Source of the DNA: an uncultured Ignavibacteriales bacterium
Lineage (GTDB): Bacteria > Bacteroidota > Ignavibacteria > Ignavibacteriales > Ignavibacteriaceae
Reading direction: 5' to 3'
Assembly (NCBI GenBank): GCA_963746735.1
Contig: CAVVCO010000013.1
Span: 51,253 to 115,252, forward strand
DNA: 64,000 nucleotides
The notes beneath the pieces were generated by a model. It saw nothing but the letters and a program-made list of their open reading frames with translations, made no database searches and was not told where the DNA came from. Of the stretch, positions 51,346 through 51,679 are shown piece after piece (within the stretch, counting starts at the first letter, position 1; every line of letters starts with the position of its first letter). The translations under genes and the position numbers were made by a program.

Positions 51346-51679
51346 GGAATGGACGACAAATAAGCCGGAAGGAATCATAAAGTAAGTAGTAGGAATGAAA
51401 TGTAACGGGTAGGAATCATAATGTAACGGGAAGGAATGACAAAGTGACTGGTAGGAATCATATTGTAAGTGGAAGGAATCACAAATAACTGGTAGGAAGG
51501 ATAATGTAACCGGTAGGAAACACATTGTAAGCCGTAGGAACGTATTGTAACTGGTAGGAATGATAAAGCAAGTGGAAGCAAAGGCAAATATACTGGAAGC
51601 AAGCACATTGCAACCGGAAGCAGCCATAAAACGGGCAGAAGGAATGACAAAGCAGGCTAAGAAGGCGACTATATGGCAG
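51346..51679. repeat. Degenerate ~21-bp tandem repeat array, 15-16 units
   Basis: Head-to-tail units of 19-22 bp, for example GGTAGGAATCATAATGTAACG (51408-51428), GGAAGGAATGACAAAGTGACT (51429-51449) and GGTAGGAATCATATTGTAAGT (51450-51470). The array decays towards both ends. Confidence 0.85.

Follow-up and report, generated by a model that had tools for sequence, protein, structure and literature searches.

A 21-bp tandem array downstream of a cyclophilin gene, probably an orphan copy of the repeats that precede PQLLE genes in Bacteroidota

A phased, non-coding array next to a cyclophilin gene

The window analysed here, a stretch of 64 kb, contains a degenerate 21-bp tandem array at positions 51346–51679 of the plus strand, delimited by Tandem Repeats Finder (TRF), segmentation and counts of its core. 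Upstream and in the same orientation lies a cyclophilin-type peptidyl-prolyl isomerase gene (ORF 50755–51330), and the array begins 16 bp past its stop codon. On the other side, 494 nt separate the end of the array from the next ORF, which starts at 52174. This 148-aa ORF belongs to no family and is followed by a UG14 RT and by a UG7/Drt8 RT with its PD-(D/E)xK nuclease; the whole group (52174–56673, plus strand) lies outside the element. These distances agree with a preliminary description of this DNA, which gave 16 bp and about 490 nt, and which reported 15–16 contiguous units of about 21 bp that lose similarity towards both ends of the array. By manual segmentation there are 16 abutting units of 20–22 bp each, and the end units are indeed weaker on both sides. 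TRF, the check proposed at the time, reports a core at 51370–51566 with a period of 21, 9.5 copies, 72% matches and a score of 177. This is the best-kept block of the array on the plus strand, and because two unit subtypes alternate there are also super-periods of 41 and 62 bp over 51356–51575.

The unit consensus is GGWAGGAATCATAAWGTAACT, given as GGTAGGAATCATAATGTAACT in the form that was compared with metagenome units; in the last units the core changes to GGAAGCAA/GGAAGCAG, the 3' units thus being of the GGAAGCAA type. The window contains 12 copies of the GGWAGGAA core, compared with 3.6 ± 1.9 in shuffled sequence, and none of 100 shuffles reaches 12. Eight of the 12 copies fall within the array, in phase and every time on the plus strand, in line with the recurrence about every 21 bp noted earlier. 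The plus strand of the array is 70% purine (fraction 0.70). By its period and number of units the array counts as a tandem repeat of period 21 (or 42/63) with at least about five units. A CRISPR array, which the preliminary description had also discounted, is rejected, as the units abut and unique spacers are absent.

Folding of the array as RNA gave no excess structure relative to shuffles on either of the two strands (z = +0.37 and −0.36), and a search of Rfam over 50500–58000 gave no match. Two overlapping minus-strand ORFs across the array (51289–51627 and 51375–51650, jointly 51289–51650) had been considered artefactual, a view that the comparison of sister arrays given below upholds. The 21-bp array is confirmed as real, phased and non-coding, and it is unstructured as RNA. 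Scans found no recognisable promoter and no canonical terminator belonging to the array itself. The terminator scan was also negative between the cyclophilin gene and the array, so that the array would be the 3' UTR of the cyclophilin gene if there is read-through. Directly after the array lies an A+T-rich hairpin, CTTATT-GCT-AATAAG followed by TTTTT (51686–51705, plus strand), which might serve as a weak end point for transcripts; by its G+C content it does not pass the terminator scan, and a sister species (L035 in genome G006) has not kept the T-run at the corresponding locus. Farther along, two 52-nt direct repeats that are 85% identical and start with GCCTAA (58017–58068 and 58895–58946) bracket a HEPN-nucleotidyltransferase pair, with no copy near the array. 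These two repeats are all that was found in a search for repeats linking the flank of the array to cassette junctions, and none makes that link.

Related arrays in the genus and upstream of PQLLE genes

Elsewhere the same genome contains a second array of this unit family, with 75% identity (C17:147589–147877). Searching 60 relatives, we found arrays of this family in four of six sister species, with 2–5 matching stretches each, and in none of the 54 genomes that represent 47 other genera within the family and order. The genus total is 14 arrays in five of seven genomes, two in the genome of the window and 12 in sisters; the 12 sister loci were retrieved and all 14 arrays oriented with the GGWAGGAA strand up. 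Every one of them is 61–74% purine on this sense strand. The upstream gene runs in the direction of this strand at 13 of 14 loci and the downstream gene does so at 11 of 13, counts that include orthologues and paralogues and are not independent. The neighbouring genes are varied and mostly of defence type, comprising an M78 peptidase with DUF4411, AAA_15/21 with DUF4276, GmrSD_N with a HEPN protein, fragments of type ISP restriction enzymes, AAA_13 fragments and DUF3644. Ordinary neighbours include a 315-aa ORF downstream of one array (L033) and an AI-2E transporter at another (L042). Beside the second array of the genome (L017, 8570–8900, minus strand) are the AAA_13 fragments and, starting about 95 bp away, a divergent gene of 293 aa that has repeated SGGG motifs. 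An orthologous array is found in the sister genome G002 (L034). The conserved flanks enclose different defence genes in the two genomes, with type ISP restriction-enzyme fragments in L034 in place of the neighbours seen in L017.

Seven of the 14 arrays are found 108–518 bp upstream of a multi-copy gene of about 240 aa, on the same strand, and these seven also have in common a conserved left flank of about 220 bp. The encoded protein scores 149–257 bits against NCBIfam NF052641, "PQLLE family protein" (cut-off 80 bits), and belongs to no Pfam family. At E ≤ 1e-5 the PQLLE family has 1,217 clusters, whose annotation does not go beyond hypothetical; the cultivated genera Labilibaculum, Prolixibacter, Sunxiuqinia and Saccharicrinis are among the matches. 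A literature search on PQLLE and on 21-bp repeats in Bacteroidetes found nothing relevant. At 8 of 13 PQLLE loci, from genomes G041, G019 and G059 and contig C6 of the genome studied here, a 21/42-bp array lies 106–358 bp upstream of the gene, and the units of these eight arrays are all different from one another. A 21/42/63-bp array ending 29–120 bp before the PQLLE start codon is present at nine of nine loci checked (eight metagenome loci and L194, encoding proteins 65–83% identical to the query PQLLE and with at least 490 bp of upstream sequence), the distance being about 50 nt in several of the metagenome loci. Many PQLLE upstream arrays elsewhere carry a GAAGCAA..AWTGTAAG unit. At several of these loci, among them L202 with the unit GGAAGCAATGCAAATGTAAGT, 15 of 21 positions agree with the window consensus. 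The window array has the unit pattern of this classic subfamily (GWAGSAA....AWTGTAA) together with its purine-rich sense strand. We conclude that a PQLLE gene plus an array is a widespread repeat-gene module, and one that we did not find described in the literature searched.

Genome G041, from another family of the same order, has 15 PQLLE copies (loci within L182–L193). Six of the 11 copies examined have an upstream 21/42-bp array, with a different unit in each, and the copies of this genome provide a natural experiment for the co-variation of protein and repeat. The genome of the window itself encodes a distant PQLLE-like protein (C6:102800–103480) that scores 42 bits, under the family cut-off. 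About 330 bp upstream of its gene is an array of 12 × 21 bp with the unit ATGACTTAAAGAGAATTTCCA (C6:102216–102478), and the pairing of repeat and gene hence reaches remote paralogues. Another array of the genome, about 14 × 21 bp with the unit TCATTTGAAACTCTMYTYAAG (C17:251205–251501), is followed after 80 bp by a pair of adjacent ORFs encoding 259 and 132 aa; arrays with a 21-bp period may precede other gene families too. A scan of the genome collection for three GGWAGGAA cores at 21-bp spacing gave more than 119 matches in many phyla. Most of these have unrelated unit remainders, as expected because the scan collects any 21-bp or heptad repeat, and a PQLLE homologue is present at only 8 of 119. 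The scan also found PQLLE-linked arrays in other Bacteroidota bins. Two further loci, in bins labelled Chloroflexi (L069) and Aminicenantes (L127), have PQLLE homologues with GGWAGGAA-core 21-bp arrays; these proteins are 48–54% identical to that of the genus, and their occurrence there reflects either horizontal spread or mis-binning.

Several features of the modules bear on how they could work. Immediately before the array at L200 and L202 is a −7 box of the Bacteroidota type, TAGGTTTG; only about 50 nt, with a small hairpin in them, separate array and start codon. Both features fit an array that is transcribed as a long leader. Hairpins of the classic subfamily are found 25–50 nt before the ATG, with stems that differ from locus to locus, namely GTTTGCC/GGCAAAC, GTCTGC/GCAGAC, CGGCT/AGCCG and CAAGTTG/CAACTTG. 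In the genus, palindromes such as TCAGTCT-N11-AGACTGA are located between the array and the PQLLE gene at L036–L038, L041 and L043, some of them containing GCCTAAC..GTTAGG, and genes resembling REP-associated Y1 transposases follow in L041, L043 and L066. A confident structure model of the PQLLE protein (pLDDT 89.5) is all-helical, with two long helices and two similar halves. The model has no nucleic-acid-binding or nuclease fold, its best Foldseek hits are generic coiled coils only (best E = 0.08), and the sequence has no match in the PDB. As the model has no significant structural neighbour, the structure does not decide between action on RNA and on DNA.

As for expression, none of the sequencing runs searched contains the window array, the cyclophilin gene reaching word shares of 3–7% in marsh and sediment metagenomes. 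On two PQLLE loci (L066 and L202), metatranscriptome contigs give either a high summed depth on the array, made up of many short contigs of other organisms (90–95% identical), or no coverage. At L066 (4836–5103), two RNA-labelled metagenome libraries (runs X17 and X18) have a summed depth of 45–100 on the PQLLE array vs. 0–6 on the gene. This depth, also from many short contigs at 90–95% identity, probably comes from arrays of several organisms; it is at best suggestive of abundant array-containing RNA or DNA, and neither result counts as evidence of transcription.

The cyclophilin locus in sister species

There is neither a PQLLE gene nor a remnant of one beside the window array. No gene matching NF052641 follows on the same strand within about 30–520 bp downstream, four PQLLE proteins compared with 51300–52800 by tblastn gave only E > 9, and the left flank that is conserved among the genus modules is missing here. 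Searching the whole assembly with the family HMM returned only the distant paralogue on C6 and no canonical PQLLE gene; with completeness at 95.6% and 40 contigs, such a gene could sit in an assembly gap. The arrays without a PQLLE gene are no more degenerate than the others. Period-21 matches amount to 63–88% in orphan arrays vs. 67–75% in PQLLE-linked arrays, and the greater decay expected of orphans was not seen. Orphan and linked arrays also have one unit profile in common, including A11, A13, G16 and A19, the positions left free by the search pattern. The lack of greater decay, and the homogeneity of 88% in the orphan at L033, speak against a simple dead relic.

In two sister species the array occupies the orthologous position. 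The order in G006 (L035) is the cyclophilin gene (88% identical), an insertion of 4 kb, the array with a right flank of about 180 bp, different genes, and an FG-GAP gene, the same gene that ends the slot in the window (start 59192). In G002 (L042) a 479-aa gene stands between the cyclophilin orthologue and an array. These two loci indicate that the array is old at the cyclophilin site. Orphan arrays thus stand at this locus in three species with the unit profile unchanged, including a genome without a canonical PQLLE gene, and orthologous arrays are just 62–69% alignable. Within the 4-kb insertion of G006, 190 bp from the 3' end of the cyclophilin gene are present in duplicate (G006:C12, L035 2822–3011; 84% identical to window 51140–51330), just upstream of two ORFs (643 and 240 aa), pointing to insertion activity also to the left of the array.

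Array and right flank of G006 are together 69% identical to the window over 529 bp, and homology stops about 180 bp past the array, not at the array itself. The suggestion in the preliminary description that the array marks an island boundary holds approximately, in that array and flank border a variable slot, as seen in G006, and has to be amended in that homology ends some 180 bp beyond. The right flank kept between the two species (51680–51860, plus strand) is about 88% identical over 51687–51780, above the identity of the array. This stretch of about 90 bp is non-coding, and its level of conservation resembles that of neighbouring coding DNA. The right flank also includes ATGGCAGAC, similar to the 3' arm of the small hairpin that precedes PQLLE start codons at other loci; it is a half-motif only, a matching 5' arm not being found in the flank.

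Interpretation of the array and its alternatives

The best overall explanation, to which we give a probability of roughly 60%, is that the array is an orphan member of a PQLLE-type repeat family. It would be a copy of a 21-nt-period repeat, rich in purines on its sense strand, that normally lies directly upstream of Bacteroidota PQLLE genes on the same strand. Unit sequence, period and strand composition place it in this family. The window array resembles PQLLE upstream arrays in its period of 21 with 42/63 super-periods, its unit (GWAGSAA....AWTGTAA), its purine-rich sense strand, its 10–16 units and its intergenic position beside defence or cassette genes; it differs in having no following PQLLE gene, in abutting the 3' end of a housekeeping gene and in lacking a conserved left flank of its own. 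Here the partner gene is missing, and the array with its flank of about 180 bp stands between the cyclophilin gene and a swappable slot for defence cassettes (UG14, DRT8 and others). Transcription of this copy would come only by read-through from the cyclophilin gene. Since no canonical PQLLE gene is present in the assembly, this copy is probably a leftover. Its kept unit profile could reflect recent loss of the partner, homogenisation of the repeats or a constraint independent of the partner.

For the family as a whole, a promoter immediately before the array may drive its transcription into a long, unstructured leader in which the 21-nt units form a repeated binding platform for the PQLLE protein, leading to self-regulation or sequestration. 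Such a layout would be analogous to the repeats of type III toxin-antitoxin systems (ToxIN, CptIN, TenpIN, AbiQ/antiQ), where a direct-repeat array also lies directly upstream of one protein gene and co-oriented with it, among phage-defence genes, and with a unit sequence that varies between paralogues. The PQLLE-type units are 21 nt long in 10–20 copies, vs. 34–45 nt in 2–6 copies for type III, there is no terminator between repeats and gene, and the PQLLE protein is all-helical and coiled-coil-like rather than an endoribonuclease of the ToxN/AbiQ type. The window array, 21 nt × 16, lacks both the repeat dimensions and the terminator of a type III repeat, and it is followed by no ToxN/AbiQ/CptN/TenpN-type endoribonuclease gene and by no partner protein gene. 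We consider action at the RNA level the leading reading for the family, though well short of even odds. A DNA-level phased binding array comes close behind it, and the absence of any function in the family is possible, if rather doubtful. The co-directional sense strand lends weak support to RNA, the absence of RNA structure leans towards DNA, and a strict period of two helical turns with unrelated units in G041 fits a DNA-level role equally well; on balance RNA is slightly favoured as the level of the PQLLE platform.

The strongest competitor for the window array itself, which we regard as a tentative possibility, is a DNA-level phased binding array like iterons or parC, with the same core presented on one face of the duplex in each 21-bp unit. 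The array would be coated by a protein, either a host factor or, in sister species, PQLLE in trans, which would silence, insulate or mark the border of the slot. This reading accounts well for the strictness of the 21/42/63-bp period while the units of PQLLE paralogues differ completely, for cores in phase and RNA without structure, and for arrays that border variable defence slots and retain the family core as orphans. It is harder to reconcile with a PQLLE model that has no recognisable DNA-binding domain and with a genome that has no canonical PQLLE gene. Nor would a duplex site need a strand-specific purine bias or a fixed orientation to the flanking genes, and at L200 and L202 the −7 box lies upstream, not downstream, of the array. 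The likeness to iterons (about 22 bp in R6K and pSC101) and to parC (upstream of parMR in R1 and pSK41) consists of abutting, phased direct repeats of about two turns, located upstream of the gene for a potential binding protein. The window array differs in being chromosomal, on a contig syntenic with sister species, with cyclophilin and RT defence genes as neighbours and with no rep or par gene, A+T-rich unwinding element or DnaA boxes; its purine bias is strand-specific, and the PQLLE partner has no known DNA-binding fold.

We hold it unlikely, although worth stating, that the 21-nt repeat is a functional element in its own right, beyond a PQLLE leader. Stand-alone arrays may then work in trans, offering PQLLE proteins or a host factor a decoy or a platform, or alternatively may mark or insulate the entry point of a swappable Bacteroidota-type defence-cassette slot. 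Somewhat less likely still is a neutral minisatellite that arose by slippage, spread by recombination or by hitch-hiking with mobile cassettes, and is functionless everywhere. Degenerate units, including some of 20 and 22 bp, the occupation of several unrelated intergenic sites (one of them, L033, between ordinary metabolic genes) and the failure to find structure, promoter or terminator are what such a repeat would be expected to show. The recurrence of one period before one protein family across genera, metagenomes and different phylum-level bins speaks against it, as do a single unit profile in 14 arrays of five species whose orthologues are only 62–69% alignable and, in several metagenome loci, a distance to the start codon fixed at about 50 nt.

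Three further readings are very improbable. The array has, in about 330 nt, many GGA-containing repeats reminiscent of CsrB/RsmZ, and a sponge RNA that titrates CsrA through 14–16 A(G)GGA motifs would be consistent with an AGGA(A) motif every 21 nt and with a CsrA encoded in seven of seven genus genomes. We reject it: csrA adjoins fliW and is thus of the type antagonised by a protein, the array has no repeated GGA hairpins and GGA is not in hairpin loops, the fold is no better than that of shuffles (z = +0.37), and Rfam gives no match. In addition, the distribution of arrays does not follow CsrA, two sister genomes having CsrA and no arrays, and related arrays with Bacteroidales-type units (GAAGCAA) contain no GGA. 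Equally improbable is that the array is part of the RT island, either as a binding array for an island protein or as a transcribed repeat or template RNA for UG14 or DRT8. The preliminary description had tentatively tied the array to the RT system, a link suggested by the RT operon lying on the same strand 494 nt further downstream, and had taken a scattered satellite as grounds to abandon it. The unit family does occur at 13 more loci of the genus, all without an RT gene, its 14 arrays in five genomes have many different neighbours, and unrelated genes follow the orthologous array of G006. The comparison with RT homologues that had been proposed there leads the same way: around the closest UG14 homologue found (G159, 61% identity), 11.5 kb of sequence are free of tandem repeats, and homologues of the 148-aa ORF and of UG7 are lacking, so that, judged on this one close homologue, the array is not kept beside homologous RT genes as an RT-associated ncRNA would be. 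On this comparative evidence the array is not a component of RT systems, and with it a false lead is removed, the array being neither an RT template nor an RT-island operator. Least credible of all is a minus-strand gene for a heptad-repeat protein (112 or 91 aa): two minus frames are open over most of the array and ORFs of a similar kind (94–147 aa) span sister arrays, but the unit has no TTA/CTA and mostly no TCA on the plus strand, which explains the openness, units of 20 and 22 bp shift the frame, closely related arrays are open in different frames (..LQCLSYPLHYDSY.. in L036 vs. ..PTAYNAIPT.. in L037 and L038, with identical first residues in all three before they diverge), the 112-aa ORF overlaps the cyclophilin 3' end, and neither ORF matches Pfam, leading us to reject a coding repeat.

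The orphan reading places the array in a module of more than 1,200 PQLLE clusters, multi-copy in some genomes and often beside defence genes. Its persistence without the partner gene would mean either a recent gene loss or a constraint independent of the partner. If the PQLLE family is an RNA-protein defence or regulatory system, the orphan arrays would be its free-standing loci, and array plus PQLLE would represent a new RNA-protein (or DNA-protein) system with repeat loci that stand by themselves, comparable to CRISPR arrays standing apart from cas genes.
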